Below are positions 3,434 to 61,498 of a DNA stretch of 64,000 bases, piece after piece. Position 1 is the stretch's first letter; the number at the start of each line of letters is the position of its first letter. Made by a program: the position numbers and the translations under genes. The notes beneath the pieces are model-generated. The model was given only the letters and a program-made list of their open reading frames with translations, was not told where the DNA came from and searched no databases. This DNA comes from Geosiphon pyriformis uo1 (taxonomy: Eukaryota > Fungi > Glomeromycota). The stretch lies in NCBI GenBank assembly GCA_016748015.1, contig JAAOMT010000571.1, forward strand, positions 62,001 through 126,000, in the 5' to 3' direction.

Positions 3434-14915
<11,482 letters not shown>

Positions 14916-26800: not shown

Positions 26801-27124
26801 TAAAAAAATTTGAAAGTATAATATAATGTTTAAAATTTAAATTGGTATTTGAATTGTTATTACTATTGTTATTATAAATAGCATTAGAACTATTATTGTT
26901 ATTATTGTTAAAGTTTGAATTATAATTGATTATTGATTTTAATTTTCATATATATTTGTTAATTGGTTCTTTTTTTTAAATATTAAATAGATTATATGTA
27001 ATAATAGATTATAAATAAGATTACAATTATTACAATATTTAAAATCACATAAAATTAAAAAATAACCACAAAGTTTAGTATTTAATTGTTTTAAATACTG
27101 CTTTTGTTCTTTTTTAATAGATGC

Positions 27125-27958
27125 TATTACTTATAAAAAGAAAACAGATATAGAAAAATAGTAGGCCAGTAAGAAAGTAGTAGTTAGCATGTGAGCACAT
27201 TGCTTAGCAATATAAAGCAATGTCAAAAATCATGGCATATTATTCAGCAATATGAAGCAATGTTAAGAAAATATGGCATATTGTTCAGCAATGTGAATAT
27301 TGCTTGAGAAATTATAGCACATTGCTTGAAAATGTAAGTGATCTCGTAAAACCTAAATTATGTATATATAGTGATAGCATTAGAAGTAGAAAAGACAGAC
27401 CTCTCAGTTTAGATTTAATCTAAGCCACCTTTTCATTCACAAATATCAATAAATAATTATTTGCTATCTTAATCCACTCTCCACTATTAACACTTCATGT
27501 TGATAGCAATTAATACTTAACTACATTAGAACAATAGCTCTTGATCATGGCTATTAATGGGATACTAACTTGCAATTGCTTTTGTTTATTTTCTTTTATT
27601 TTTTTTATTTCTTTGTTTTACTAATTGATTAGAAATTAAGCACTAAGTTATTGATGTCATGAATAGTCTGGTAAAAGACCCAGAAATAAGGGTAAAATTA
27701 TATATATTAACAGACAGCTTACCAGAAGGGCATGACTGCCAGATTAAACTGGTCACCACACTAAAGACAGAAATTGGGAAAACAACTTGAGGAAAACAAC
27801 TTAAACCAACCATAGTGAATCTCTATCTATTATACAAAAAACTCTGCAACAAATCTTCAGATTCACCAAATCTTCAGATATCAACACTAGAATACCAAAC
27901 TAGCACCAAGTTACAGATTTGTTATTTGATTTGAGACCCCAAATAATCATCTGTAATA
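27125..27958 (+). repeat. 5' LTR of element A (834 bp; termini mutated TG->TA and CA->TA)
   Basis: Direct repeat of 36359-37101; TATA-like TATATATAG near 27363. Confidence 0.93.
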
Positions 27959-28020
27959 TTTGATGCTCTCTGTGAAATATAATTCTACAGAGAACCAGCA
28001 CCAACAACAATCATCCAAAA

Positions 28021-31000
28021 GTGGCAGAATTAGAAATCATAGGGACAAATCATCTAGGATTCGCCAAATTCTTGTTTCAATGGTACAGCCAACAATTGGG
28101 ATTAAACAATAACCATTTCTCAGCAGAATCAGTTTTTAACTTCTATGTCAATAATAAAATCACAGACTGCTTAGAAAGAACAGTTGACATTAAATCTGCA
28201 AGAAAAAACTTATATACAGAATTATTTCAACATACCAGTTTACCAAGAAACTACAGTTTCACACCAATCATCAGGGAAATCAATCAAACCATTAAAAAGT
28301 ATGCACAACAACAATTCTCCATCACCTATACAGACAAAGGCAAAGGAAGATTGCAAATACTAGCAGTGACATTAAAACAAATATAACCACCCACTTGGAA
28401 GAAAACCAGAGTTGAATTACCAGCAAACCCATCATACCACTATATACCTGGAAGCACCATTAACATCATATCAACAGATGTATCCATATCAACTATGACA
28501 TCAACATTTGGACAATTCCCATTCCAGAGTAAACAAAAAAAAGAAGATTTTTTAGGACCATACAGTGTGTATTTTGAAGGATTTAAGTCATGATTGTCAA
28601 TGCCATCAGAACTTTGATCTCCACCACCCCAATTCAATTTTAGAACTGCGAGTTTTTGGGAAATAATGGAATCGGAAGGAGAACAGAAAGAAGAGGAAGA
28701 AGAATCTGAAGATCAAGAATTTACTTACCAGAATCCGATCCCAGAAAACCTGGAAATTAAAACCCCAAATCTACAAATTCAGCAAAATCTAAACTTGAAA
28801 AATCCAGAAATCAGAACTCCGAATATTTCAACACTACTGAATTAAGACAATCCAAACTCTGAGTTAATTAATTAGCAAAACTTATTTCCAATAATTATCA
28901 TTGATCAGCCACCAGCTGAACCAATCTAACCACAACAAATATTACTACAACAACTACAACAACCGCTTCAACAGCCACAACAACAACTTCAACAACCAAA
29001 CTTAGATCCAATGGCCTATACTCCAATAGCAAAACTTGAGAAATTCATCAACAAAGAAGACAATGCCCAAATATGACTTAACAATGTTGAAAAAGCCATC
29101 ACAGCTAATGGATGGAATGACCAGAGAGCATTTCAAGTCATCTCTTATTTCTTACAGGATATCACCAACTCGTGATATCAAAGTTTAGCTATCAAACCCC
29201 AAACATTCTAGGAATTTAAAACCACATTCTTGGGATATTTCAGTAATAATAACAGCATTAATTGCTTGGCAAACACTTTTATCACTATCAAGCAAGGAGA
29301 AAATGAAGCAGTCACTACTTACTTAGAATGCTTCCACAAAAATCTGCGCCAAATTTAGACCATATAGGCTGATTATTTCACAGCACCACAAATCTTAAAT
29401 CAATTCATTAGAGGTCTGCACAGTAGCATCTTCCAATATGTGTGCCCAATGCATCCAGCAGACTTCCAAGCTATAGTTACAAATGCCAGAGATTTTGAAG
29501 CAGCCAAACTCAAAGCCAACTATGCTTAAGCTGTAAACTTAGTAATGAACAGATCATTTAACTTGGATTCCAAACTGAAGCAATTAAGTGACTCACTCAA
29601 TCAGAAATTAGAAGAGTACTTAGCTAACAACAATCAAGCCATTTATCAACCTCCCCAATGACACAAAAACCAAGGAAATAGAAATTGATTCCAAAATCAG
29701 TCATGTCCAGCATCTTTCATGACTAATTAACAGTGGCAGTAGAAAATATGTACTTGTCACTATTGTGGTAAACAAGACCACTTGCAAATTGATTGCCACC
29801 AACATTTAAATAACCAATGATTGGGAAATCAATATCGAAATCCCAATTGCCAGATTCAAATTCCAAATCATCAATCAAATCCAGCTCTATATCAACCAAA
29901 TTACTTACTGATGACGCAGTCATTGTATCAAACTCCAATGATGCAGCAATTATACTTACCTCCAGTCTATTAGTCTCCAGCATCAATTTATCAACTACAG
30001 TTCCAATCCATTTATCAGTTGCAGTCTCAGGTAATTTATTAGCCCCAACAAAATCAAATACCATCCCAGTACTTATCTTAAAATGAAACCCAAAGGCTGA
30101 AACTAACACAACAAAGCTAAAAATTGTCAATAATAGTCTATTAACCAATCTCCAGTTCTACAGCACAACTATTAGGATTTTAACAATGGAATTCGGGCAC
30201 TGAGAACTCCCAAAATCTGAATGCCCAACACTATTTAAGTCTTTTGGTTATCCCAAAAGATGCCCCACCCAACAACCCAGAAACCAACAACATACTTCTA
30301 ACCACAGTCACCAATAACAAATCACTAGCAGCAATCTTTCCATTTGAACTCGAGGAAACCACACCAGTTCTATTATTCAATAGAGCCATTCTAGATACCA
30401 AACCAATTACCACCATGTACACAGACATAAAAGTTAATGGCCACACCATCAAATTAATCCTAGATAGTAGATTAGCTGGCAGCATTATCACATGACAACT
30501 CATAAACCAATTAGATCACAGAGTTGATTGTGCTGTCAGCATGTGCATAATTACTGTTGATGGAGTGACCAAAACACCAATTGGTGAAATTAATGACTTT
30601 CCATTCAAAGTCAATAGCATCATTACTCCTATCAAAGTCCTAATGATGGAAGCAACCCAATATCAAGCATTGGTAGGCAATGATTGGTTATCCAAAACTA
30701 ATGCCATACTCGATTGGACCACTTAAGAACTACAACTCAGCCAAAATGGCCAACACACCTGAGTACCAGCAACCTGTGGTCACTTCAAACCCAGCACTGC
30801 TATAAAACCACTAATTGAGTTTGAAAAGGACAAGAAAAAACCAACATGGGAAGCATATCAAGTCTTTTGGGCCAATGAAAACCACAACAAGTTACTGCCT
30901 ATACTATTCTGGAACAACAACAGCAAAAGAAAACAAAAGGACACAGAACTTATTTGAAACATTAACTAAGTCTGATAAACCAACAACAATCAAGACAAAA

Positions 31001-34000
31001 TAATAAAGTAAGAATAGAAAAAAGCTAAATAAGAGAAAAGGGAAAGAGGAGAAAGAAAATTTAACACCAATCACCACTTATAATTACTATACAAATACTA
31101 CACCATGATGATCTATCTATTGTCAGCCAAAACTTATATGCATCAATTGTGGCAAAAAATTGTCATCAATGGGTGCATGCTATAATGATGATAAGGAATA
31201 CTCAACAGTAACCAAATTTTACTGCCATGCATGCATCATAGAACACTTTGGATGACCAAAACGGAAAAAAAAATGGGACAATGATCCTTGTCTAGCTTGT
31301 GGAGAAACATTACTTGACGAAGGAATGTGAAATGACATTTCTGGTCAAGGAGAAACATGCAATGCTTCATGTCAGTACACGATCCTTATCAGCAACTGGG
31401 TTAGGAAAGGGACACCAATAAAAGCCGCCTAGAAAAGAGCTGTACAACAATTGGACAGTTGTTCACACAACGATGATGAGATATGAAGAATGGCAATCAC
31501 CAAAATAGAAGAAGCACCACCTGAAGAAATCAGAGAAATCAAAGACAACCCTCCAGAGCCCATAAAACTTGACTGGGACTCAGAACCAGTCATAAATCTC
31601 TTGGATCCAGAACAATTCCATGAACATTATCAAGAGCTAGCACCTACAAAAGAAGAGCAGGAGCAATGCTTGAAAGAAATTAACACTTGACTATGTGATC
31701 ACTGTTTGATTCTATGTGACTTCCAATATTGTAATGAATGTGACCTTATTTACAATTCACTACCATGCATTATTTACACAATCCCAGAAGAAAAAAAACC
31801 AATCAACAGTTGTGCATCAGAATTGGAATCAACTTTCAATCCTGATTCAAACTCTGACAATGACAACAATGAAAACAACAGTTCCAGCTTCACTCCAAAT
31901 AGCAATGAAAATTACAATGATTCAAACTTTGATTTAAACCCCAAAACATTTATCGCATTTTCTGACCTCACCAAAAAACAGGAATTTAAATAGTTTAGCA
32001 ATAGTAGTGAAGGTATCATGCCAGAATATGCACATGATACAGATACAGAGTTTGATCTGAAATATCCAGGAAAAGATTCCATCAAATTGGAACCACATTT
32101 GCACACCTGTATTGATCTTAAAATAGCACTGGAAATTTTAATGACCACTATGATTCAATTAGCATCTAAGAGTAGTTTAGCAAAAAAGAGAATCAACATC
32201 AAAGGAGGAATAATTGATGCAGAGTATATAGGAAATATCATTGCTATATTACAAAACAACTCAGAAAAGACCTATACCATAGAACCAAATAAAAAGATAG
32301 CACAGGCAATATTCCTACCTCTGGTAAAAATAGCTCAGTTAGTGTCAATGGGAAGCAAGAAAGAATTAGAAATAACAGCAAGAGGGATACAGAGATTCAG
32401 ATTAATGGGTAGAATAGATATATCAGTTAATATGGCAGAGGAAAAGATTATTAACAAAGAAAAAATTATCTTAATCCATCAATCAATTTTCATTCCATCA
32501 TATGATCAGTATATGTTAGCCATAAAAAGAGAAGTAAAGAATCAAGCTCAGTTGTTTGAAGCAGAAGCTATCATTTGTGAATTAGGAGAGATTGGACTTA
32601 CTAATCTTTACATATCAGCCAAAAGTCCCAAAAACATCAAAATTCTCATCTACAACATAACGAAAAATGTCATTGAGATACCAAAGGAAACCATCATTGG
32701 ATATTTAACCACTGAAGTTAAGGATCAACCACCAGACCATATTCCAGATTTTCCATAGCTTTGCAGATATGTGGACATCACATTACAAACCATCTATGAG
32801 CAAAGTGAATGTTATCTGCTCCAATCAGAACAATTGGAACAGATAAACATGAAGAATCTAGACTCACTCCAACAGATACAACTAAGAATGTTATTCAGCA
32901 ATTTCAATGACATTTTTGCTAGCAAAAATGAATTTGGCCACACCAATATCATCCAACATTAAATTAAGACTAGAAATACAATGCCAATTAAGCAAAGAGC
33001 ATACAAAGTACCACCAGCTAGTCATAAGATCATTTGTCAAAAAATCAATTGGATGCTTGACAATGGGCTAATTCAGTCATCAATGAGTTCATAGTTGTTA
33101 CCAGTGGTACTAGTCCAAAAAAAAATGGGAAAATTCATTTTTGTGTGAATCACTGAAAACTGAATGGAGTCACCAAAGAAGACAGCTATCCAACTCCAAA
33201 GATCCAAGAACTATTTGATGCTTTTGGAGGAAATAAATGGTTTTCAACACTAAATTTAGATAGTGGTTACTGGCAAGTAGCCATGGATCCAGCTGACAAA
33301 GAGAAAACAGCATTTACCATAAGAAAGGGAAACTTTGAGTTTGAAGTCATGCCATTTGGCTTGATGAATATTCCAGCAACATTCCAATGGCTCATGGAAA
33401 TTGTTTATACTAGATTACTGTGGAAATCAGTAGTTGTTTACTTAGATAACACAAATGTGTTCTCAAAAACATTTGATAATTATCTGCACCATCTCCAACA
33501 AGTGTTTAAAAAACTTAGATGAGCAGGATTGAAACTAAATGCCAACAAATGCTTCTTTGGAAAAACAGAACTAAAATTCTTGAGACATGTTGTGAGTAAA
33601 AATGGCATCAAAACAGATCCAGACAAGATTGAAACTGTCAAAAACTTTCTAGTACCAAACAATTTCACAGAACTAAGAGCATTCTTGAAATTCACAGGGT
33701 ACTATTGCCACTTTATCAAAGACTTTTCTAAACTGGCCCAGCCACTTTATCATTTACAAATTAAGAATGTGAAGTATGAATAGACAAAAGCTCAACAAAA
33801 AGCATTTGACACACTAAGAAGAAAACTTATTCAAGCTCTGGTGTTGATGTATCCAGATCACAACAAACCATTTATTATCACCACTGATGTATTAGACCAG
33901 ACATTGGGAGCAGTACTATCACAGAAAAAACCAGATGGAAGAAAACATCCAGTAGCTTACGCCAGTAGAAGCTTAAGTCCAGCTGAAAAGAATTATGGAA

Positions 34001-34242
34001 CATTAGCATTAGAACACTTAGTAATTTATTGGGCAGTCATAAAATAGAAAAAATACTTGAGTCAGAAGTTTGATGTATATACTGATCACAAAAGATTGAC
34101 TTTAATCCAGAAACAAAAATTTGAAGATGATTGCCATGTCAGATGAAAAATAGAACTTTCACCATTTAATTATATGATACATTATAAAAAAAGAAAAGAC
34201 AATGGAAATGCTGATGGTCTGTCGAGAATGAGACAAATCTAA
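28021..34242 (+). pseudogene. gag-pol of element A (Gag, protease, Cys-rich region, dUTPase, RT, RNase H)
   Basis: One frame through gag and protease, single-base slips near 31027 and 33120, many transition-type premature stops. Confidence 0.85.
32018..32412 (+). pseudogene. dUTPase domain in pol of element A
   Basis: Five dUTPase motifs: DTEFDL, SKSS, GGIIDAEYIGNI, KIAQAI, RGIQRFRLMG. The altered ones revert to DAGFDL, SRSS, GIIDAGYVG and RGIQGFGSTG by undoing G->A or C->T changes only. Confidence 0.9.
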
Positions 34243-34272
34243 AAACATTTTAACCTAAAAATATAACAAAAG

Positions 34273-35655
34273 ATGAATATACAAAAATATCAACAACTCC
34301 AATATTATATAAATACTCAATTGTTCAAGAAGAAATTATCTCAAAAAGAGCAAAGAAACATAAAACAACAATCAAAATACTTTATCAACCATCAAAATAT
34401 ACTTTACTGAAAGAACAAAAAAAATTCAGACCAACCAACCAGAGTAATCACAGAACCAGAGAAAGAGACAATATTATTCAACATGCACTCAGATCCAACA
34501 ACAGAACATTTTCATAAAAAAGCAACCATAGAGAGAACTAAAAAAAAATATTATTGGCCATTAATGTATCCAGATATCATTCAATATGTCCAAAATTGTA
34601 ATGCTTGTCAAAGAAGAGAAGGAACAAAACCCAGTAAACCATTGAGACCAATCAAAGTGGAACAACCATTTGATCACATTGGAATTGACTTAGTCAGATC
34701 ATTAATAATTACCAGCAGAGACAACAGATATATTGCAATAGCCATGAACTATCTTATTAAATGGCCAGAAGCAAAAGCCATTTAAAGAGCAGATGCAGAA
34801 TTCATTGCTGAATTTGTTCATCAAGATCTGATCTGTTAACACAGATGCTCAAAAAAATTATTATTTGATCAAGGAACTCACTTTGTGAATAGAACATTAG
34901 CAGAACTAAGCCAAAGATTTGGAATAAAAAGACCACTATCATCATCATACCATCCACAAACAAATGGGTTAGTTGAAAGATTCAAAAGAATACTGTGTGA
35001 AGCAATAGCCAAAATTAGCTAAGAAAACCAGAACAAATGGGATTTAATTATATTATCAGTATTATTTGCATATTGAACAATAAAGCAAGACACCACATAA
35101 GCAACACTATTTGAATTAGTATATGATAAAACAACAACATTACCAGTTGAGATAGAAGTCAATACATATCCAACTGAACCAATAACAGAAGATAATTTCC
35201 AAGAAACATTGTTGAAAAGAACATATGACTTAATAGAAACACTAGAAAACAGACGACAAAAAGCAGCTAATAACATCCAAAAGTCACAAGAAAAGCAAAA
35301 AAAATGACATGATAACCAACTACCAGATAAACCAGTTGAATTTAAGATTGGAGACAAAATATTATTACATTATACCAAAGCAGAAAAACAATGGAGTGGA
35401 AAATTTGACCCCAAATGGGATGGACTATTTCACATAGAAAAAATTTTTGAAAATGAAGCTTATAAATTAAGATAAAACAACAAAATTTTAGCCAAAGCAG
35501 CACATGGTGATCGACTGAAATTATATCACCAGATAGCATCATTATTTACCAATAACATTCCACAACTGAGAGTACAAAAAATATTAATTCAACCAGATGA
35601 GATTCTATGCGATCTGAAACCAATCATAATTATTGAACCAAACATATCAAATTGA
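34273..35655 (+). pseudogene. Integrase of element A
   Basis: MHSDPTTEHF...CNAC (HHCC), FDHIGIDLV, FDQGTHF, HPQTNGLVERF, KFDPKWDGLF; no chromodomain seen. Confidence 0.9.
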
Positions 35656-35709
35656 ACAACCAAAAAGTATATAAAAACACAGTACACGTGACAAAAGCAA
35701 CCAAGAAAA

Positions 35710-36345
35710 ATGGAAATACCAGATCATATTTACACTATAGCCCAACAATTGTTCCAGGCCTTAAGTCAACAACAGTTAAACATGGAAATTGTTATTAACA
35801 ACCAAATAATTTGCTATCAAAACATCCAAAGAAAAACAAAAAATACACCATATTAATGGCCACTAAAGAATAATAAAAATTGGACAGATAACTTAATAAA
35901 AAAAGTGAAAAACACTTTTGAGAAGATACCTATTATGGCACCAACAGAAGATCTTACAAAAAAAAATTGAAAGCAATGAACAGAACGACTTTTAATATCA
36001 TATTGCTACTATCAGTTAAGTCAAAAGTTGAATATTCAGGAATTGTATATTAACAAATCCAAGAGAATATTCAATTAAGACATAATACAACAAATTGAGA
36101 AATTTATTGGAAAAAAGATGAATTCAACACTACATGTTAAAACAATGTACCAACTACACAATATATTTCAGAACTATCCAGAAATACTGTTATACTTTGA
36201 CATAAAAACCATAACCATTAACCAATAGGGAAGAATAAATAATACACAAGTAGAAAACATGAGAAACAAAGTCGAACAAACAATACTTGAAAAAGAAGTG
36301 CTAGAATTAATTTAAAACAAAGATTTTGATAGAGCTCAATATTAA
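35710..36345 (+). pseudogene. ORF3 of element A (~211 codons, unknown function)
   Basis: ATG at 35710 and a single frame to TAA 36343-45, broken only by stops explicable as CAA->TAA or TGG->TGA/TAG. Missed by the ORF track. Confidence 0.7.
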
Positions 36346-36358
36346 AAGGAGGAGATAA

Positions 36359-37101
36359 TGTTACTCATAAAAAGAAAACAGATATAGAAAAATAGTAGGC
36401 CAGTAAGAAAGTAGTACTTAGCACATAAACACATTGCTTAGCAATGTGGAACAATATCAGAAATCATAGCACATTGCTTGAGAATGTGAGCAATCTCGTA
36501 GAACCTAAATTATGTATATATAGTGGTAGCATTAGAAGTAGAAAAGACAGACCTCTCAGTTTAAATTTAATCTAAGCTACCTTTCCATTCACAAATATCA
36601 ATAAATAATTATTTGCTATCTTAATCCACTCTCTACTATTAACACTTCATGTTGATAGCAATTAATACTTAACCACACTAGAACAATAGCTCTTAATCAT
36701 GGCTATTAATGGGATATTAACTTGTAATTGCTTTTGTTTATTTTCTTTTATTTCTTTGTTTTACTAATTGATTAGAAGTTAAGCACTGAGTTATTGATGT
36801 TACAGATAGTCTGGTAAAAGACCCAGAAATAAGAGTAGAATTATATATATTAACAGACAGCTTACCAGAAGAGCACAACTGCCAGATTAAACCAGCTACT
36901 ACACTGAAGACAGAAATTGGGAAAACAACTTGAGGAAAACAACTTAAACCAACTATAGTGAATCTTTGTCCATTATACAAAGAACTCTGCAACAAACCTT
37001 TAGATCCACCAAACTTTCAGATATCAACACTAGAATACCAAACCAGCACCAAGTTACAGATTTGTTATTTGACTTGAGACCTCAAATAATTATCTGTAAC
37101 A
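36359..37101 (+). repeat. 3' LTR of element A (743 bp, TGTTAC...GTAACA)
   Basis: Preceded by PPT AAAAGGAGGAGATAA and followed by TSD ATGC. Confidence 0.95.
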
Positions 37102-38561
37102 ATGCCAAGTTTTGGTAATATTTATAAAATTGTTTTGGATTACTTATAATGTTAATAAAAATATTTGAATTTAGATTCAGCAAGTTTTAATAAGCTGTTT
37201 TTAATTTTTAATATTTTACTTAAAGATATGTCTTCAATTTTAGCAGTTATTATTCTTCAGATTTTATCTTTATTATATAGATAACTGTCTAATCATAAAA
37301 GAATTTTGTTTTATATAGTGTCTATAAACATTTTTTTATTTACTTAATTGTTAATAAGAATTATGTATTAGCACAATTTGTCACCAGAAATGTTGTTTTA
37401 TATTTCTTTGTCTAAAAAAATTTTTTTATAAATAAAACAAGATTTATTGTTTTATTTTTTCTGTTGTTTTAGTTATTTAAAGTATTTTTAATAACAAATT
37501 TTATAGTAGTAATAAGTACATATTTTTTATTTTTTTTCTAATAATATGCAAGCTTTCATAAATAAAAGCTTTTTGTTATAATTTTTGTATTTAAGTAAGA
37601 TATAAAGTAGTTGTTTCTTTGGTTTTAGTATTAAATATAAAACATACTAATTGTTAATTAGTTTATTTGTAAAGATAGTAACTTAAAATTTGTCTTTTTT
37701 TTTTCTTTTTTTTTTATATAAATACTAAAGATAACTTATTGTGATTTTTTTTGTTCATAAGATTTAATAGGCTTTTCAAATAAATTTCTCTTTTTTTTCT
37801 TAAATTTTATTAATAATTGTATGTTAATAGTAATTTTAAAGTAATTACAAATAGTTAAAACTTAAATATATTGATTATTTTAGTTAAACTTAAGCTTTTA
37901 AATATTTTAATTAAATATTATATTGGTTTTGGAAAGCCAGTTATTATTAACAAAAGCTTGGTACTATCTGGCTTCTATTATTAAAATTTTAATAAGCATA
38001 ATAATGTCATTAATTTCAAATAAAAAGTTATTAATTTTATCAATAGAAATTTTTGTGGCTTTATCAATAGTAATAATTCTGATATTGGCAATATAATCAA
38101 TTTAATAATCTAATTGATTCATAAATTATTGTATAATAATACTATTTGTTAATTCATTATCAAAAATTAACTTAATAAAATAGCTATTAACTTTTATATT
38201 TGTATACATAATGATAATTAGTTTGGTATTAAAAACAGTTTTATTGAATAATAAAGTTTTTATTGGGTTTTCAAGTTTAAAGAAAAAATAGTGATAAGTA
38301 ACTTATTTTTTGTTATTATAACTAATAGAATATTATTAATAAGTAGTTTTTAGATTTTCAAGTTATTGAATAAGTTGTTTTTTGAAGTGGCCAAAAGACT
38401 TAAATAGCTTTAAAAATTTGGGTTTTAGATATACTTATTTTTTGAATTTTGTTAACATAATTTTAAGTATTAGTTTAATATATTGGAATTAGTTAATATA
38501 TAATTATTGCTAATTTCTAGTTTTGTTAAATAATTTTTGGTTTTTGGTTTTTAGTTGGCAT

Positions 38562-39340
38562 TGTTACAGATGATTATTTAGGGTCTTAAAGCAAATAACA
38601 AATTTGTAACTTGGTGCTTAATTAATATAATGATGTTAATTTCTAAAGATTTTAATTATCTAAAGGTTTTTATATCTGAAGGTTTTTGTTGAGTCCTTTG
38701 TATAATGAACAGAGATTCAATTGTTGTTTTAGTAGCCTTCCAGAATTGCAATTCGGTCGAATTTTTTTCTCAGCATAGTAACCAATAATCCTTCTAATAA
38801 GCTATTCTTAAATCTATAAGTTTTTTACTCTTGTTTCACAGGTTTTTTACCAGTCTCTATAATGTCTGTAACTCAACACTTTTTTTTAATCCTTAATTAA
38901 TTAGTAAAACAAAAAAAAATAACAAAAAAAAATAAAAAAAAATAAAAAAAAAAGCCAAGGCAATAAATATTAATATTCTATTAATAACTGTGATCAAGAG
39001 CTATTGTTTCAGTATAATTAAGTATCAATCACTATCAATATAAAGTATTGATAATAGAGAATAGATTGAGATAATGAATAGTTATTTATTGATATTTGTG
39101 AATGGAAAGATTGCTTAGATCAAATCTAAACTAAAAGGTCTGTCTTTTCTTTTTTTAATGTTATCACTATATATACATAATTGAGATTTCTCAATTTCTC
39201 AATTTTTCACACCAGAAATCCTGAAATTTCTGGAATTCTGCAATTCCTCTAAGAGAAATCTTGGAATTCCACATTTATTATGGCTACTTTTAATTGGCTA
39301 ATTTATATACTAATATACTTTTTATATTCTATGAATAATA
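38562..39340 (-). mobile_element. Solo LTR related to family A
   Basis: Starts TGTTACAGATGATTATT (reverse complement of the LTR-A end); flanked by 4-bp TSD GCAT at 38558-61 and 39341-44. Confidence 0.85.
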
Positions 39341-44119: not shown

Positions 44120-44411
44120 ATAATAGATTAATAAGCAAAACAATTTTTGATTTCTTTTAAGTAAGTAGTTGTATCTTTTTTTTTGTTAGTAAAAATAATA
44201 AAAAATCTTTGTTTGGTGTATTCTTTAATTTTGCAATTTATTTCTATAATTATTAGGACAAAACTATAATTTTGTAAAAAACTAATGTGTTGTAGTAGCT
44301 TATTGTAAAAATTTCTAATGATAGTGTTATGGTTAAAACCCATAGTTTTTATTAGTTATCACATATATTAGCCACTAATGTCATATAATTAGCCACCCTA
44401 TTTTTTGATAG

Positions 44412-44531
44412 TGATTGTTAATCTGATCAATGACCTGACCGTTGACCTGATCATTGACCTGATCAATGACCTGATTGTTGACCTGATTGTTGATCTGATC
44501 ATTGACCTGATCATTGATCTGGTCATTGACC
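44412..44531 (+). repeat. 12-bp tandem array (TGATCATTGACC) x10 in the 5' LTR of B; x6 in the 3' LTR (51461-51532)
   Basis: Units counted directly; four units equal the 48-bp LTR length difference (726 vs 678). Confidence 0.92.
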
Positions 44532-45102
44532 ACTTTAGATAGCTATATAAGTGATGATTCTCTTAGCTGTAGAAAAACATGATCAAAGTAACAAAATAAA
44601 CAATATCAATTACTTCCTTTTATAATCACTTATTCCCCTTTCCTTATCTTCAAGTATCTACTTGTTGGCATTCACATACCTTATCTTTTTCCCTTCTTGA
44701 TTTGTATTTGTTAGAATTAGCCTGAGAAGCAATTGGCTTGTTCTTGTAATTCATTGAATAAAGAAACAATTGAAAAGTACAACAATACCTATTATTGATT
44801 CTAAGAATCGCCGAGTTGAGGCATAGAATAATAGCAGTAGTGTTATCTTGTTGACAATCACAGACTATTCTTTTACCTTCAGATTTAAGAAAAGATTAGT
44901 GACTGTGATTTTTATGAAACTAATCATGCACATTAAATTCCTACTTATTCAATTCGCTCCTTTATTGTAATTCCCTCTTTGTTTATTTTCATCACCATAC
45001 AATACTGTTCTCTCTTACTATCCATTAGCTTGTTACTCCAATCCGTAACATAAAAGTGGTGCTCCCTGTGAGGTTGTTAAAATTCACTTATTCCCTCATT
45101 GT

Positions 45103-46655
45103 ATGGGTAATTACTTATATCTGCCACAGTAATCAGAAGAACACTTTGTAGCACACAACAGAAATGACCTAGATTTCATTGAACTTAATTCTCTGCCCTC
45201 CTGCTTGATCTGCTTCCCCCTTGAAGAACAATCCAGTAGACAATTCCAAGACTTCTGGAACTGGTTCCTGAACAAGCATTCAGCTAAAACCTACACAGCC
45301 TATACAACCTATTACTTTGATCAAGCTTATTTTGAAAACAACTTTGAAGAAAGAAACAACAGTATCAATCAGCTCTTATATTCTGCAACCTTTGAACAAC
45401 AGCCCCCTGATTTTGAATATCTGAATCATCAAATCCACATTTGGATTGCTGCCCATCAAGCAATTGAAACTCTTTTTGAAACAGAAGAAGAAAGCTACCA
45501 AACTGCCCCTGTTTTTGACTTTTTATCAAGTAAATCAGACTCGTCTACACAAACAGTTACCTCTGAACCAATGGCTAATGACCTCATGCAAGCAAACATT
45601 CTGGCCACCTTCCAAGGTATACAAACTGCTCTAGGAAGAAGAAATAATACCCCACTACCACTATTTAGAGGTGATGCACAAGATCCAATTGAATGGTTGG
45701 ATGATTTTGAGAGAGCTGCTACAGCCAACCAGTATGATGAAAAATACAAGTTCCAAATCATTGGTGGCTACCTCCAAGGCTCTTCTGCTACCTGGTTCTC
45801 ACAAGAAACAGATGCCAATGCTCAACACAGAATAATCAGATGGACACCAATTAATGCTGGAGAAGAAAATACCTTTTTCACTACCCGATTTGAGGCCAAG
45901 TTCAGAACCCCAATATTAATATCAAAATGGCGCATGGAATTGGAAAGAAGAACTCAAGGTCTTGGAGAAGTAGTGACTGAATATGCCAAGGCTATTAGAA
46001 AGCTAATCAAACATGTAGACTCTGGGAGAAATTGAACAGAAGAGCAGAAAATTCACTCCTTCACAAAAGGATTGAGAACTGATTTATCATATGCTCTTTG
46101 GCCCCTCCTGGCCCTGAAAGATAATCCCATCATAGATATGGCTATTGAATTAGCACAAAGAATTGAAAATAACCAAAGGATGCACTTGGAATCCACACTA
46201 CCAGTTTTTGCTTCTGCTCCTGTCATGGCTTTTGCCCCTCAAATGGCTGCTACTTCTTTTGCCACTCACACTCAAGATCCAAATAAACAGTTAATAGACA
46301 GACTCACAGCAAATCTTGCCTGGTTATTAGAATCTTTAGCCCAAGCAGTCAGAGAAAATCAACAACCACAAAGACCCAGATTTGAACCATGCTTCAATCA
46401 GTCCAGCAACCACCTTATCAAAGACAACAAAATTGTGGCCCACCTGTATGCTATCGCTGTGAATTAACTGGATACTTTTCAAGAGATTGCAACAATCCTC
46501 CACTGTCTCCACCAGTTCCCAGAAACAATGATGCTTAAAACAACAGACCTAACAACAACAATATGCCCAACCAAAGACCCAATCATGTCAACATCAATTT
46601 TTTTGGAGAGAATCCCCTAGTTGAAGCCACTGTTTATTAGCCTTTAAACTGGTAG
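45103..46655 (+). pseudogene. gag of element B
   Basis: ATG at 45103 (MGNYL...), capsid-like LPLFRGDAQDPIEWLDDFERAA, zinc knuckle CYRCELTGYFSRDC (H->Y), a frameshift lesion near 46400, stop TAG at 46653-55. Confidence 0.85.
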
Positions 46656-46690
46656 GCACATCTCCAAAGGATAAAAGTACAAGCCAACCA
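46643..46690 (+). promoter_or_regulatory. Programmed -1 ribosomal frameshift signal (T TTA AAC + stem-loop)
   Basis: The heptamer is in gag phase, one codon before the gag stop. The -1 frame is open from here into protease and RT. Downstream TGGTAGGC...GCCAACCA can pair. Confidence 0.75.
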
Positions 46691-49327
46691 GAAGAAAACT
46701 CCTTTTACGCTTTTAACTTAACTAATAATGACCATGACATAGATGAATTAGCAATCAACCCTTCTGAATCCACAAGAAAGAAAAAGAAAGCCAAAGTTGA
46801 TTTCGTTCTGGACCCCAATAAAGCTTCTACATCAACTGCTGACAACAATAAGCCCCCAAAAGCCAAAGTTTTCAAGAACCCTTCAAAGTTGGAACCCCCA
46901 GAAATAGTACAAAAATCCGGCTCCTATTCTGTTGTCAAAGACCTCATGGAAACCCCAGCACATATAACCTTTGGCCAATTGATGACCCATTCACAATTCA
47001 GAAAAGATCTTCGCAAATCTCTGATTCTAAAAAAAAAGACATCCAAAACCAACAAACGTCCTCACCAAGCTGGACTTGCTAACAATAGCAATGTCACTCC
47101 TCTAATTTGTAAAGCCCAAGTGGCTGGCTACTTCATCAATTTGATCTTAGACAGTAGATCATCTGTTAGTGTTATTGCTAAACACTTTTTTGAAGCAATT
47201 GGCAGAAAAATTGATAAACCATCCACACAACCAATGACCAATGTGCATGGTGATAAAAAAAAAGGGCTTGGCATAGCCAAAGCTATTCCTGTCCACATCA
47301 ATGACATCAGCATTGAAACTGATATGGAAGTATTTGAAGTGAAAGAATACACCATCATTGTTGGCAATAAATGGCTCAAGAAAGCAAAAGCTTTGCTTGA
47401 TTATGAACTCTGTGAACTAACCATTAGATGTGGTGAAAAACCCATTGTGGTTAAATATCACTATTGGACAACTCCCCCAGTACCCAAGCAGAGCCCAGAA
47501 GAAAATGAATCAGATGAATCAGATGATAAAGAAAGTGAGGAAGAAGAAAAACAAGAAAAAACTGCTGAACTTGCCTATACTATCTTCACCAGCAATGGCA
47601 AACCACTGGATAATGTCAAGGCAGATAAAGAAAAAATTATTGTCAATGGCAAGCTGATCTGCTGGCCTTATTATGACATGCTTAAAAGAACCTTTGACAG
47701 AAAGCCAGGCAAGAAAGCCAAATACAGTTATTGGTGGCATGGTCTTTGTGCCTGGTGCTGGTGCAACAAACCATTGTATTCTCCTAGTGATGAATGCATG
47801 TCCTGCCTGATTTATTACAAAGATTGGGAACCAATCAGCTTGATACCCCATAAGGAAATAAAAGAAGTCCAAAAGTCCTTTGAAAATGAACCACCTGAAA
47901 TTCAATCACTGGTTGTAGAACAAAGAGAACTCTCTTCAGAAGAAAAAAAGATAGACATTGAAAATCTGCTGGCTAGAAACAGCCCAGTTGTCTCAAAAGA
48001 AGGTGAACCTCCTGGACGTACACATGTGATACAACACACCATCATTATCAGAGAAACTCGTCCCATCCATTTGAAGTCCTATCAATCCAACCGATGCAAT
48101 GATGAGTTTATCAAAAAAGAAATAACCCAAATAAAAACTCTTGGATTCATACAGAAAACCAAGAGTGAATGGGCATTCCTAGTTGTAGTGGTATCCAAGA
48201 AAGGAGGAACCCTATGCTTTTGTGTTGACTATTGTCAATTAAATGCCATTACTGAAAGAGACATGTATCTACTTCCCAAGATTGATGCAATGCTAGACCA
48301 ATTCCATGGTGTTGCTTTCTTCTCAACCATTGACTTAACTGCTGGATTCTGGCAAGTAGAGATGGATCCAGAAAGCAGAAAGAAAACTGCTTTCATCACC
48401 AAGTATGGCACCTACGAATTCACAGTCATGCTTTTTGGTCTCACAAATGCTCCTCCCACCTTTCAATGCTTAATGGACAAAGTATTTGAATCAGTAAAAG
48501 AAAACTTTGTTCTAGTCTACTTGGACAACATAATGGTATACTCAAAAACCTGGGATAAACACCTTGAACATTTGCAAAAGGTTTTTGACCTCCTTAGAAA
48601 TGCTGGCCTCAAGATCAATCCAATCAAATCATTCTTTGGACGTCAATCCACCCAGTTCCTTGGCCATCTTATTACAAAAAATGGAATCTTCCCTGATTCA
48701 GCCAAAATTGAAAAAGTTTAAAACATTAGACAACCAATGAATGTTCATGAACTACGCTCTTTTCTTGGTTTGGCCTCTTATTACCACAAGTTTGTCAAGG
48801 ATTTCTCCAAAATCGCCACTCCTCTCAATCAGCTACTTAGGAAAAACATCAATTATCACTAGAGCACTCATCAACAAAAAGCATTTAAAATTCTGAAGGA
48901 AAAACTGGTTACAGAATCTATCCTCATGCAACCTAATCTGGATCAACTTTTTATCCTCCATACTGATGCATCTGGCTATGGACTTGGTGCTGTTCTTTCC
49001 CAGAAAGACAAAGATGGCAGGGAACATGTTATAGCATATGCCAGTAGAACTCTCACACCAGCAGAAAGGAACTACTCAGTCACAGAGCAAGAATGCTTAG
49101 CAGTAGTTTGGGCTACCAGCTATTGGAACAAATATCTTAAAGGTGTAAAATTTTTGGTGGTAACAGATTACCAAGCTTTGGTTTGGCTATGCAACAAAAA
49201 AAATCTGGAACATAAATGGATAACTCGCTGGATACTCCACTTGGATGAATTTGACTATGACATTCAACACCATAAAGGAGCTAATCATCAAAATGCCGAC
49301 ACTTTCTCCAGACTTACCATCCAGTGA
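46643..49327 (+). pseudogene. pol (protease, Cys motif, RT, RNase H) of element B
   Basis: LILDSRSSVSVI, FSTIDLTAGFWQV, MLFGLTNAP, YLDN, LHTDASGYGLGAVL, NADTFSRL then TGA TAG TAA. Confidence 0.92.
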
Positions 49328-49392
49328 TAGTAAAACCCTCTCAAACCAAACCAACTTAATTATTTGTAACTCCCCCACAAACAAACACAATA

Positions 49393-50706
49393 ATAGACTT
49401 GGACAACTACTCTGCCTTAATGGAATTTTTGGGTAAAAGACAATACCCACTGGACTATACTCGACAGCAAAGAGAACATTTGCACAAACAATCAAATTTC
49501 TATTTAATTCGCCAGAACCAGTTATATAAAAGAAATAAAAAAGATCCTGACTGCCCCCAGAGAATCATTAGATTTGAAGAAAAAGAAATTGTGATCTACA
49601 ATATGCACACTGATCCATTAGCTGGACACTTTGGAAAAACAAAAACAATTCAGAAAACTTTAGTTCGCTATTATTGGCCTATCTTGAGAAAAGACATCAC
49701 TGAATACATTAAAACCTGTAATACCTGCCAAAAAAAAGGAAAACCCAATCGCAAGGAAGATATCCATCCAATCTCTGTTGGTCAACCATTTGACAGAATT
49801 GGTATAGATGTTGTTGGACTTTTAATAGTAACTCCTGATGGCAACAGATACATTATCACAGCTACCGACTATTTTACAAAGTGGGTAGAAGCAAAAGCCA
49901 CCCCAAATCAAACAGCAGTCTCAATTGTCAATTTCAATTATGAAGATATCATTTGTCATCATGGCTGCCCCAAAGAACTTTTATCTGACAGAGGAAGAGC
50001 TTTTCTCAGTACACTGGTTGAAGAACTTTGCAGAAAAATGGAAATATGTCATAAACTCTTTTCCCTTTATTACCCCCAAACAAATGGCCTAGTGGAATGT
50101 TTCAATAGAACACTATGTAAAACCCTAGCCAAAACCAGTAAAGAAACCAACCTATGGGACAAAGTATTGCCTTCAGCTTTGTTTACCTACAGAACTGTGA
50201 ATCATGACATAACAAATTATGAACTCTTTTATCTGCTCTATGGACAAATGGCAACTCTACCAATAGAAATAGATATAGAAACAATACTTTTTGAAAAAAT
50301 AACAATAGGAGATTACAAAGACATTTTGCAAAGAAGACTTGGTACTATTTTTGACTCATTGGTAGAAGCATGGATAATTGTCTTTGAAAAGATAAAACAG
50401 TTCCAAGAAAAGCTCAAAAAGAAAAAGACTTATAAAACACTTTCCTTAAATGTTGGTGACTTAGTTTTGGAATACTATTCAGACAGAAACAATGTTTATG
50501 GTAATAAATTCTCTAGCTGCTGGAAAGGACCTTTTATAGTCAACAAAGTTTTGAACAATGGTTCATATATCCTATAAGATCAATATGGAACAATATTCAG
50601 TGATTGCCCTATTTATGGTATGCGACTCAAAAAATATCATAAACAACCTGATTGGTTATCTGTTGTGGTAATACTGATCCAAATGATCAGCAAAAATCAG
50701 ATATAA
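49393..50706 (+). pseudogene. Integrase of element B, in a different frame from RT-RH
   Basis: MHTDPLAGHFG...CNTC, FDRIGIDVVG, LSDRGRAF, PQTNGLVECF, WKGPF; probable start ATA (decayed ATG) at 49393. Confidence 0.9.
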
Positions 50707-50747: not shown

Positions 50748-51404
50748 ATAAACAATTATTTCCTGGATCAAAACATTCAAAACGCTTTCTATACTCTCCA
50801 TGAGTACTGGATCAAGAACTATCCAAATACTACTTTGACTATCGGAAAACAAACCACCATAACAGACAACAGTAAAACTCACACTGTTATTAGACCAAAG
50901 AAAACAACTACCAGAAGAGAAAAAATTGGTGGCAAAATGGATAAATACCTGTTGGAAAGCATAACAGCAGTAATACTTTCACTTTTCAGCACAATTGGAA
51001 AAACAATACAAGAAATCTTGCCCATAGATAAAAACTTGTCATATGAAAGACAACTAGAACTCTATGATTGTCTTGGTGAAATCATAGAAGACATAAAGCT
51101 CATGAAGAAAACAACTTCAGAAATACAAGGGAAAATTTTGGCCATTATACGATTAAATGTCCCAAGAGTTTTGACCATTACTAGAAGAGCCAGAACTCTT
51201 ATACAAAGATTTGGTCTCTTGGATACAAAACTTATTTTACCTCAAGTATTATATACCCTATCCACAAAAGATTTCAACAAACTAATTAGTTTTGAATTAG
51301 ACAAAACCCTTCACATAAACTATCCCATAAATAGCTTGATTTCACCAGAGCTCAATCTCTTTGGAGAGAATGATGTTATGGTTGAAACCCATAGTTTTTA
51401 TTAG
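50748..51404 (+). CDS. ORF3 of element B (unknown function; open frame 50652-51404 reading into the 3' LTR)
   Basis: 250-codon stop-free frame between integrase and PPT; probable start CAAC-ATA (decayed ATG) at 50748. Confidence 0.7.
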   Translation: MNNYFLDQNIQNAFYTLHEYWIKNYPNTTLTIGKQTTITDNSKTHTVIRPKKTTTRREKIGGKMDKYLLESITAVILSLFSTIGKTIQEILPIDKNLSYERQLELYDCLGEIIEDIKLMKKTTSEIQGKILAIIRLNVPRVLTITRRARTLIQRFGLLDTKLILPQVLYTLSTKDFNKLISFELDKTLHINYPINSLISPELNLFGENDVMVETHSFY

Positions 51405-53082
51405 TTATCACATGTATTAGCCACTGATGTCATATAATTAGCCACTCTATTTTTAGATAGTGATCATTGACCTGATCAATGACTTAACCGTTGACCTGAT
51501 TATTGACCTAATCATTGACCTGGTCGTTGACCACTTTAGATAGCTATATAAGTGATGATTCCCTTAGCTGTAAAAAAACATGATCAAAGTAACGAAATAA
51601 ACAATATCAATTATTTCCTCTCATAATCGCTTATTCCCCTTTCTTTATCTTTAAGTATCTACTTGTTGGCATTCACATACCTTATCTTTTCCCCTTCTTG
51701 ATTTGTATTTGTTAGAATTAGCCTAAAAAGCAATTGGCTTGCTCTTGTAATTCATTGAATAAAGAAACGATTGAAAAGTACAATGATACCTGTTATTGAT
51801 TCTAAGAATTACCAAGTTGAAGCATAGAATAATAGCAGCGGTGTTATCTTGTTAACAATCACAGACTATTTCTCTACCTTTAGATTTAAGAAAAGATTAG
51901 TGACTGTGATTTTTATGAGACTGATCACACACATTGAATTCCTATTTATTCAATTCGCTCCCTTATTGTAATTCCCTCTTTGTTTATTTCCATCACTATA
52001 CAATACTGTTCTCCCTTGCTATCCGTTAGCTTGTTACTCCAACCCATAACAATAGTATCTAAATTTTTTTTGTCTTCTTAAGTAGCATATAATTTTTTTG
52101 TTAATGTAAAAATTGAAAACTGATTTTATTGGCCAATAATTATTTTTTAATCCTAAGTAAGTTTAATAATATTAAAATAAGAATTTTGCAAATCTTAAAT
52201 AATTTTTTTCTATGATTTTTTAGTTTGCCACTTTTTCAAATAGTTAATACTAATACTTGTTTTCTGTTAAATTATATCTTATAAGAAGTATTAAATATTA
52301 TAAATAATTATTTAGAATATTAAAATAAATAACAACCTTATAACTTAGTGCTTAATAACTATTTTTAATATTAATTTCTAAAGGTTTTCAAATTTAAAAG
52401 TTTTTAAGTTAAGTTTTTTGTATAATAAACAGAGATTTACTTAATAGTTATTTTTCTAAATTTTTTTTTTTAACATAAAAACTAGTTTAATCTAACAGTC
52501 ATGCCTTTTTGGTAAGCTATTTTTAAGTTTTTATTTTTGTTTTACAGATTTTTACCAGAATATTTTTGATATTAATATCTTAGTACTTAATTTTTTAATT
52601 AATTAATAAACAATAACAAAACCAAAGAAAATAAAATAAAATAAAATAAAATAAAAATAAAATAAAAATAAATAAAAAATTAATATTTTATTAATAGTTA
52701 TAATTAAGAGCTATTGGTCTAATATAGTTAAACAGCAGATATTATTAGCATAAATTGCTAATAAAATTGAAGAATATCAATTTTAATCCAATAAAAAAAA
52801 TAACATAGATTAAAAATAAATAAATATTTTATTAATATAAATATAAATCTGTTTTAAAATATAAAAAACTATTTTTTAAAAAAGAAGTATTTTTATAATT
52901 AGCTTGTTACTAATTATTTGTCTAGTTATTGGTTTTAAAAATTGATTTTTTTTTATTTTTAATTTTACTACTATATATATATAATTCTTATTATACAAAA
53001 TCTTTTAAAATTTTTTTTTTACTATACTTATTTTCTATTAGTTGTTATTAACTATTATGATTCTTATTTTTTATATGTAATA

Positions 53083-58690: not shown

Positions 58691-58778
58691 TTTAGTATAT
58701 TAAATATTAATATTTTGTTTTAATTATAATTAGTTTTTCATAAATTTTTCAATTCTATTTGTGTAATAATAATATTAT

Positions 58779-59544
58779 TGTTATAAGTTGAAATAACAAG
58801 TTAATAGATAGCAAAAAAGAACAAAATTATAGAATAATAAAATTAATTAAAGAAAAAATTACAATAAAAAAACAAATTAAATAAATAAGAATTCAATATA
58901 TATAATTAGTCTTATAAAAATCACAATTTTAAATCTTTTTTGGAAATTTAAAGGTAGAAAAATAGTCTATAATTGTTAACAAAATAATATTACTATTATT
59001 ATTTTATGCTTCAACTCAGCAATTCTTAGAATTAATAACAAATATTGTTGTGCTTTTCAATTATTTTTTATTTAATAATTTATAAAAGCAAACAATCACT
59101 TTTTAAGCTAATTTTAACAATACAAATCAAGAAAAATAAAATAAAATATGTAAATACCAACAAATAATCTTTTATTCCAAGATATTTAAATACTTAAAGG
59201 TAAAAAAAGATAAATAAACAATATAAAAAGAAATAATTAATAGTAGATTTTATTTTATTACTTTAATTATTGATACATTTTTTTTTATAGCTAAAAAATT
59301 TATTGCTTATATAACTATTAAAAATAGTTAATGACCAGATCATTAATCAAGTTAATAATCAGATTACTAATTAGATTAATGATTAGGTTAATAGTCAAGT
59401 TAACAATCAAATTATTAATTAAGTTAATATTCAAGTTAATACTTAAATCATTAATTATTATCTAAAAATAAGATGGCTAATTATATAATATTAGTGGTTA
59501 ATACATATAATAACTAATAAAAACTATGGATTTTAATCATAACA
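58779..59544 (-). mobile_element. Decayed solo LTR of family B
   Basis: Both ends match LTR-B in reverse complement (TGTTATAAGTTGAAATAACAAG...; ...AACTATGGATTTTAATCATAACA); remnants of the 12-bp array at ~59330-59455. Confidence 0.85.
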
Positions 59545-61498
59545 ATATTATATTAAAAACTTTTTTTTTAATGCCATAATATAAATTATTTTTTAATTTT
59601 TAATTATTATATATATTTATGTACTTTTTTTTTAAAAATTAAACTAAAATTTATCTATTGTTTTAAAGTTTTTTTTGAAACTATTTTTACAATTGCTTAA
59701 TGTATTTTTCTAATTTAAAAACATAAAATATTAATAGTTTTTAACACATTTTTTATTTTATATAATAAAACTTTTATTAATTAATAACAACATAAATAAT
59801 CTTAATCAGAGATTATTTTTTCAAAAAATTTAGCTAATAAATAATAATTTTGTTTAATAAATAATACAAATAAGTTTTTTAATACTTTTAATTATAATAA
59901 TTCAATTTTTAGTATTATTTCTGATTTTTTTTTAATTTAAAGATTTTTTAGGATATTTATTAAAATAAAAACTAAAAAATAATTAAAATAAAAGATTAAA
60001 ATTTGGCAAAATTAAACTATTAAATAAATTATTGTTTTTTTTAATATTAAAACTACTATATATATACATATTTGTAGTTTTATAAGAAAACACATTATAA
60101 TATTTTTTTTAATATCTCAATCTAGTGTTTATTGTTATTACTAATTAGTATTTATTACTATTATAAATTAGTGCTTGTTACTATTGTAAAATAATATTTG
60201 TTACTATGTTAATTATTATTTTTCTAAGATTATTACTGTGCTATATTATAATTAAATAATTTATATTATTTTATAATTTTTGTATTAAATTTTTAAATCA
60301 TAACAATATATTTTATAAAATTAATTACAATATATGAATTTTTTTAAAGCATTTTTTAAAATAATATTTACTGTTATAATTAAAAACAACATAAATGTGT
60401 TCTTTAAAACTAAAAAATTATTACCAAAAAATTTTAAATTTACTACAAAAAAATAAAATGTGATTTAACAAAATTTTAAAAAAAACTTTTTATACTATTT
60501 GATAAATATAATTAAATAAATATTAGTAAAAATTTTTTTTAATTATAAAATTTAAAAATTATTAAGACCCGAATTTTTTTCTATTAAATAAAAATTATCT
60601 TTATTACTAAATACAAATTTAGCAAATATAAAAGCAAAACAATAATAATGTTTTTATAACTTATTAATAATTTTAGAAAAGTTAACAGTTTTATTATCTG
60701 GCAAATTTTTAACAACCAAAAATTTTTTTATCTTAATTTAATTTATTATTTTATTAAAAATATTATTATTAATATAGTTAAGTAGAACATATTATGTATA
60801 CCAAAAATTAAAAAAAATGCTAAACAAAATACATATTTGGTTTAATTTTCTATGATCAAATTTACAAATAATTTAATTTTATTAAAATTTATAACAAGCT
60901 TATTATTTATAACTAAATAATTTAAAATTATTTTGTAAAAATAATAATCTAATATATAAATTATATAGTTTTTGTTATTAATAAAATTCTTTATGTATTT
61001 CTTAATAATAGTTTTAATTCTTTTTGATTTAATTTTATAAGACTTAAAATATTTTAATTAGTAATATTTTTTTTAGCTTTATATAAAACTTTCTAAATAA
61101 CCAAAAATACAATAATATTATCTACCAAATCAAAAACAAAAAAATATTTACAGTATCTATTAAAATTTATTTTTGTATAAAACAAAATTAATTAATTTTT
61201 TTATACTATATAAATTATTTTAAATTACAACTTTAATAAAAAAAATTAACCAAGTCTAAATTCAAGTATTTTTTGAAATTTGCATTATACTTAAAACTAT
61301 TTTTATTAAAGTTATTATTCAAAATAACAAAAGTATTTGTATTAATTATATTAGTAAAAAAAACTTCTTTCTTTCTTTCGTCCAAAATTCCCAAAAAAGA
61401 GTCAAAAGTTTTTTCAAAAGAAGTTTTTTACTATTCAGTATGATAAATCAAAACTGTTCTTTGATTACGAGGCCACTGTTGGCCCTGTTATTGCTGTT

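Follow-up and report, generated by a model that had tools for sequence, protein, structure and literature searches.

When a Ty3/gypsy retrotransposon carries its integrase outside the Pol reading frame, is the break damage to a single copy or a property of the lineage, and, if the latter, how would the free enzyme be made and reach the cDNA? The question is raised by element B of the window (the whole 64,000-nt stretch of Geosiphon pyriformis DNA analysed here), a decayed Ty3/gypsy LTR retrotransposon in which gag, protease, reverse transcriptase (RT), RNase H (RH), integrase (IN) and ORF3 were recognized from sequence and Pfam matches. Its LTRs, domain order and RT make it Ty3/gypsy; a canonical feature that is absent is the position of integrase as the C-terminal part of the Pol polyprotein. 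The features of element B, with the evidence for each, are as follows.

44321..44324 (left) and 52052-52055 (right), + strand: 4-bp target-site duplication ATAG (flanking sequence)
44325..45050, + strand: 5' LTR, TG...CA (90-91% identity with the 3' LTR)
45057..45073, + strand: primer-binding-site-like stretch starting with TGG, 6 nt past the 5' LTR (sequence, without a matched tRNA)
45133..46467, + strand: decayed gag region (tblastn matches to gag regions of related loci)
46625..49327, + strand: pol (protease, RT, RNase H), closed by a conserved TGA at 49325-27 (Pfam, sibling copies)
49328..49392, + strand: non-coding spacer of 65 nt without AUG (sequence, fold test)
49393..50706, + strand: separate integrase ORF with HHCC, DDE core and GPF (Pfam, homologue alignment)
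50748..51404, + strand: ORF3, 218 aa, start codon ATA in the window copy (homologue starts, predicted structure)
51363..51373, + strand: polypurine-tract-like stretch adjoining the 3' LTR (sequence)
51374..52051, + strand: 3' LTR (LTR pair comparison)

Transitions account for 67 of the 71 differences between the two LTRs. Gag is interrupted by one internal TGA at 46033 and has its zinc knuckle shifted to another frame (in intact relatives it matches Pfam Ty3_capsid and Retrotrans_gag), pol carries internal decay stops at 48719 and 48860, and the integrase ORF, which matches both Integrase_H2C2 and rve in Pfam, has a premature TAA at 50575. At the junction, the RNase H terminus NADTFSRLTIQ is followed by TGA (49325-27), TAG (49328-30) and TAA (49331-33), and integrase begins in a different frame at ATA (49393-95), 65 nt beyond the first stop. 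TAA at 49357-59 closes the integrase frame upstream of that start. The intervening spacer is rich in A and C, and its folding is no stronger than that of shuffled sequences (z 0.17). That mutation has simply broken an ordinary continuous pol is in keeping with the transition-rich decay of this copy and with the distance from RNase H to the zinc finger (approximately 98 codons), which falls within the range of fused elements (73-372, median 116.5, n=60). Against this, just four other internal stops occur in approximately 1,700 codons of gag, pol and integrase, so the break at the junction is more than decay.

Sibling copies bear on the same point. These were taken from contigs of sequencing run X1 (6,605 over 49000-49800 and 732 over 49285-49415), with variants listed above a threshold of 2%; the run may be the window's own sample, and since contigs drop rare variants, rare fused copies may be missed. 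Two further runs, X2 and X3, contributed no contigs at the junction. At that threshold the first stop is kept, with no variant at 49325 or 49327 and with 49326 varying only to give TAA (17%), whereas the second stop reads CAG (49328 T>C) in 29% and the third reads TAC (49333 A>C) in 44% of sibling depth. For comparison, seven T sites among 40 listed rows carry C in 49-97% of sibling depth, against less than 2% at 49325. The original prediction had Pol ending at a triple stop, which is present in this copy but does not hold for the family: one stop (49325-27) and one integrase AUG are the family features, and the triple stop is spacer drift. The AUG is seen in the 49000-49800 contig set, where G at 49395, which turns the integrase start into ATG, makes up 62% of sibling depth; the position is unlisted in the 49285-49415 set, where it lies close to the edge. 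An alternative had also been offered, namely a 1-nt deletion plus CAA>TAA at 49357, and the siblings do not support it, as their contigs contain no frame-restoring indel (the sole indel is a 1-nt loss at 49336 in 4.5%, and no insertion is listed) and no C variant at 49357 above 2% at a summed depth of approximately 330,000. Sibling contigs aligned over the junction, in place of the single family-B copies originally suggested, show a retained first stop and, above the 2% threshold, no continuous RT-RH-IN frame.

The break was likewise sought in related elements, using the best 80 of 474 metagenome stretches retrieved with an alignment of 57 integrases. Pol closes before integrase in 53 of the 53 loci that hold the RNase H end (the other 27 of the best 80 do not extend to RNase H), and a usable integrase ATG is found in 52 of them, the exception being L024, which has a broken integrase start and was left out of the 52-locus counts. 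The 52 loci are diverse, forming 46 groups at 90% and 27 groups at 70% integrase identity with a median pairwise identity of 49%. Four contigs with identical ends (L016, L021, L052, L077), the pattern given by collapsed multi-copy elements, are all split. At the protein level there are 646 near-length integrase homologues; among the 120 listed, the homologous Met is the first residue of 88 and follows a short leader in 6, the remaining 26 starting elsewhere, and the 8 organism-named matches within these 120 are all from Rhizophagus or Geosiphon. Met-Asp/Glu/Asn stands at the integrase start in 72 of 73 cases, which we do not take as evidence because fused linkers also have Asp near that site. 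Scanning viral contigs with the integrase yielded one distant fused element (L001), which was left out of all counts.

Pol itself varies among these loci. RT-RNase H occupies its own frame of 493-544 codons, apart from protease, in L025, L064, L073, L037, L047, L060, L068 and L074. An acidic Pol tail extends 216-344 aa beyond RNase H in L035, L038, L042, L059, L061 and L069, with no Pfam match in the four tails scanned (L035, L038, L042, L061).

Element A (27119-37031), a second LTR element in the window, belongs to this clade too and has decayed further; Pfam places a dUTPase before its RT, and its junction is as follows.

34240..34275, + strand: TAA stop, a 30-nt gap containing another TAA, and the in-frame integrase ATG

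The start of element B's integrase had been noted as similar to that in element A, and the likeness is borne out, the MNIQKY start being matched at 34273, in frame and 30 nt past the RNase H stop. Because element A is heavily decayed, its junction is ambiguous by itself; in trees it falls in the split clade. Elsewhere in the window, inverted LTR remnants of families A and B, about 70-80% alike, lie at 38555-39189 and 58772-59558 and are likely old solo LTRs, and two intron-containing host genes occupy 16900-23874 (+ strand) and about 3500-14600 (- strand), their translations resembling what we take to be acetyl-CoA carboxylase and a neurofibromin-like Ras GAP.

Since the loci had been picked by integrase, two control searches were run, one for longer proteins and one from the RT-RH side. 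The former gave just three proteins with more than 40% identity over most of the query (P0121, P0122, P0123). As fused elements these were rejected, being eukaryotic gene models without an RNase H end and integrase start that we read as intron-joined predictions, and they were left out of the trees; the public models appear spliced across the junction. From the RT-RH-side search, 37 of 150 hits were used (those judged single-RT, in a search dominated by multi-RT chimeric models), of which 5 fall inside the clade, all without integrase in the chain, and 26 are fused, all outside. The densest RT-RH tree, of 94 rows, places 27 split rows together with 5 that lack integrase on a single branch (SH-aLRT 99), which contains 0 of 51 fused rows. 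Two 57-row trees nested one fused row (P0146, 1 of 25; support 96/87) in the clade; it left the clade under the denser sampling, and an AU test did not reject the strict split clade, without P0146 inside it (p 0.43). With the root placed on IN-RT-RH elements, in trees without named reference lineages, the split branch is nested among fused RT-RH-IN elements; the IN-RT-RH order, found in 27 of 120 long hits, forms a separate branch and is still one polyprotein. This nesting makes a single fission of an ordinary RT-RH-IN polyprotein the simplest reading and the likely origin of the layout.

The retained sibling stop, the 53 of 53 split loci and the trees together refute decay of a continuous pol for family B and for the clade (element A alone being ambiguous), leaving that explanation with next to no probability, and we regard the Pol/integrase split as real with near certainty. 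The central claim of the original prediction, integrase in a separate ORF within a gag-pol / IN / ORF3 layout, is upheld by the same sibling copies, informative loci (among the best 80 of 474) and trees. Sequence comparison indicates that the split is real and runs through one large clade of fungal Ty3/gypsy elements.

How, then, might integrase be made? In the 52 loci (from the best 80 of 474) the gap from Pol stop to integrase start is -20 to -1 nt in 19, +2 in 1, 19-192 in 30, and 365 and 943 in 2, the 943-nt gap of L052 being likely a broken RNase H tail, and gaps occur in all three frames. The 19 overlap junctions include ATGA five times and TAATG twice, with other short overlaps in 12, and are concentrated in few families (4 of 27 representatives). 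Low-level fusion of Pol to integrase by frameshifting or readthrough, followed by conventional packaging, would be allowed by the geometry of 26 of the 52 loci (14 by +1, 8 by -1 and 4 by readthrough). In the other 26 no single event of either kind could join the frames, no single frame is common to the loci, and the integrase frame of element B is closed at 49357-59; we consider such fusion very improbable.

The arrangement we favour is that Pol ends just past RNase H and that integrase is its own gene, starting at its own AUG on the full-length RNA, at which ribosomes terminating on Pol probably restart. At overlap-type junctions the ribosome would restart on the spot, and in spacer-type members (65 unstructured nt in element B) the small subunit would keep scanning until it met the first AUG. 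Integrase made on a packaged RNA could then bind in cis to that RNA, or to freshly made Gag-Pol, replacing the covalent link. Foamy virus Pol and the hepadnavirus polymerase are synthesized separately from Gag or core and enter the particle through the RNA, and it is by analogy with these that we infer cis loading of integrase on its own RNA; there the whole polymerase is separate, whereas in the split clade integrase alone would be.

Several sequence statistics bear on this proposal. Purine stands at -3 of 58 of 67 integrase starts, compared with 248 of 388 internal Met codons. In the spacers of 20 family representatives ATG occurs once against 8.9 expected (0 of 1000 dinucleotide shuffles as low), and the reverse-complement control triplet occurs 13 times against 16.7 expected (p 0.15). 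Over all 30 spacers the figures are 10 against 21.2 for ATG and 21 against 31.6 for the control triplet (p 0.006), so the shortage of ATG is partly compositional. ATG is undepleted in the final 60 nt of RNase H coding sequence, with 28 against 24.2 expected in the overlap type and 22 against 24.4 in the spacer type; a mild deficit over the last 99 nt (51 against 59.5, p 0.02) is confined to the spacer type and absent at 60 and 150 nt. The AUG-free zone accordingly begins at the Pol stop, which, together with the ATGA and TAATG overlaps, is the pattern predicted by termination-reinitiation as characterized in the available portion of PMC10275272.

Integrase could instead be translated from a subgenomic RNA, either initiated in the spacer or produced by splicing from the 5' end; it would then meet the cDNA inside the nucleus or through binding to RNA. 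The good start context and AUG-poor spacers would also suit a short 5' UTR, a transcript starting in the spacer suits spacer-type (though not overlap-type) members equally well, gaps range from -20 to +365 inside one subclade, and some spacers (L023, L078) contain pyrimidine-rich YAG stretches. On the other hand, a YAG acceptor precedes the integrase start in 50 of 62 loci, with 49.5 expected by chance, and the upstream ATGs of overlap-type members are unpurged, although a UTR lying within RNase H would require their purging. AUG-poor spacers, an unpurged RNase H end and chance-level acceptors jointly favour termination-reinitiation, and we judge the subgenomic route unlikely. It is important to note that L037 (365 nt, 7 ATG) and L060 (192 nt, 6 ATG) are ill-fitting to simple scanning; close kin of both overlap, so the gap is only loosely tied to the stop. 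With their many spacer ATGs, these two fit neither reinitiation nor a spacer-started transcript in any simple way.

A further feature of the scanning path is an RNA stem-bulge-stem-loop, one per element, that ends 0-12 nt before the integrase AUG in 22 of the best 80 loci and counts against simple scanning. Examples are:

L035, 5192-5229: stem-loop
L015, 294-332: stem-loop (20 other loci carry it as well)

The structure consists of a 4-bp stem, an 11-nt one-sided bulge, a 6-bp stem with many two-sided changes and an 8-nt conserved loop. Over 18 loci, pairing holds in 96% of cells and two-sided changes occur at 8 of 10 pairs; these values exceed all 500 shuffles and all slid controls (26-61%), for a structure that was drawn from these same rows. 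Single-sequence fold energy is unremarkable (z -0.35). Rfam gave nothing at E 1 over six loci, on one 141-nt stretch no Rfam family passed its gathering score, and the exact pattern has no match in viral or prokaryotic contigs. Elements A and B of the window lack it, the best window match (E 0.53) lying elsewhere. Its possible functions are those of an entry site, of an operator for protein binding and of a signal for packaging. A single, covarying copy so close to the AUG would suit internal entry, with ribosomes recruited straight to integrase, in some members by this RNA; but 58 of the best 80 loci (some too short upstream) and both window elements lack the structure, the window spacer is unstructured, and the sequences that support the structure are those from which it was drawn. 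We consider internal entry quite unlikely. Given a real split, reinitiation is probably the main route, judging from the junction sequences, and we give slightly better than even credence to the reading as a whole, a separate-integrase lineage that arose by fission and is translated by termination-reinitiation from full-length RNA.

The message would extend to ORF3. The window protein is predicted to be mostly helical (model pLDDT 67.6), belongs to no known family, and gave no Foldseek match at E 0.001 (best VIA Z 5.8). It has at least 120 homologues, all listed ones being Geosiphon pyriformis proteins annotated as hypothetical, and Met stands at the start position in 59 of the 120 listed. Related loci carry a conserved helical ORF3 family downstream of integrase, in which 28 of 37 candidate ORFs link up, no Pfam match is common to more than one of 29 members, and 6 of 23 cases show an overlap between the ORF3 start and the stop of integrase; the link from the window ORF3 to this family is weak (E 0.19 and 0.085). 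Family members include:

L015, 1596-2042: ORF3-family ORF
L050, 1488-1919: ORF3-family ORF
L078, 1557-2357: ORF3-family ORF

In L067 the ORF after integrase (1945-2889) holds what we take to be a Nudix box.

LTR retrotransposons and retroviruses are believed to get integrase into the particle by making it within Pol, and a diverse split clade is a natural setting for studying how integrase reaches the cDNA when the covalent link is missing. Its junction variants (overlaps, bare spacers, structured RNA) are likewise suited to the study of reinitiation after a long ORF in fungi. Tentatively, and with less than even confidence, we picture an old and successful clade whose polycistronic gag-pol / IN / ORF3 message (some members having protease and RT apart) would be read by restart, with free integrase reaching the cDNA via RNA and the stem-bulge-stem of a quarter of sampled members serving as loading site or translational switch. 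LTR elements make up 41% of the Geosiphon genome according to the accessible text of PMC11952901. Annotation is affected too, as gene-calling programs bridge these ORFs with introns or record the integrase as a solitary transposase. We found no description of a split integrase in the literature searched; Repbase, GyDB, closed journals and supplements lay outside that scope and may describe it.

Other elements also move the integration enzyme in their coding layout. Gmr1-like gypsy elements do so by placing IN before RT, an order that element B does not have. Element B shares LTRs, a target-site duplication, gag, the PR-RT-RH-IN order and an HHCC/DDE/GPF integrase with canonical Ty3/gypsy, and its lineage differs in giving integrase its own AUG and a further ORF behind. 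According to the part of PMC5371799 available, Ty3 integrase is released by cleavage of the Gag3-Pol3 polyprotein, and in neither Ty3 nor Ty1 was cDNA synthesis restored when integrase was provided separately from RT. The split is surprising for that reason; a separate integrase made by restart would conflict with this yeast finding that integrase must travel joined to RT. DIRS elements, according to the accessible text of bioRxiv 10.64898/2026.05.21.726589, similarly have a separate ORF for the integration enzyme, which in their case is a tyrosine recombinase, and plant Tat elements encode an additional RNase H in an ORF of its own (PMC10508981, in the part available). The free-standing enzyme of approximately 400 aa with zinc finger, DDE and GPY/F is shared with Ginger1 and YPYY-type gypsy integrases, among which Gypsy-1-I_RO is listed, and the N-terminal aromatic pattern before the zinc finger looks similar to YPYY when matched by eye; Ginger1 transposases, however, have terminal inverted repeats and no RT in the available account (PMC2836005), whereas element B has direct LTRs and RT-RH. 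Termination-reinitiation after a long ORF is described, in the available portion of PMC10275272, for caliciviruses, influenza B, the fungal viruses CHV1 and HvV190S and the non-LTR retrotransposon SART1; the split clade shares AUGA and UAAUG overlaps with these systems in 7 of 52 loci (from the best 80 of 474) and differs from them in having spacers of at least 19 nt in 32 of the 52, and of 65 nt in the window.
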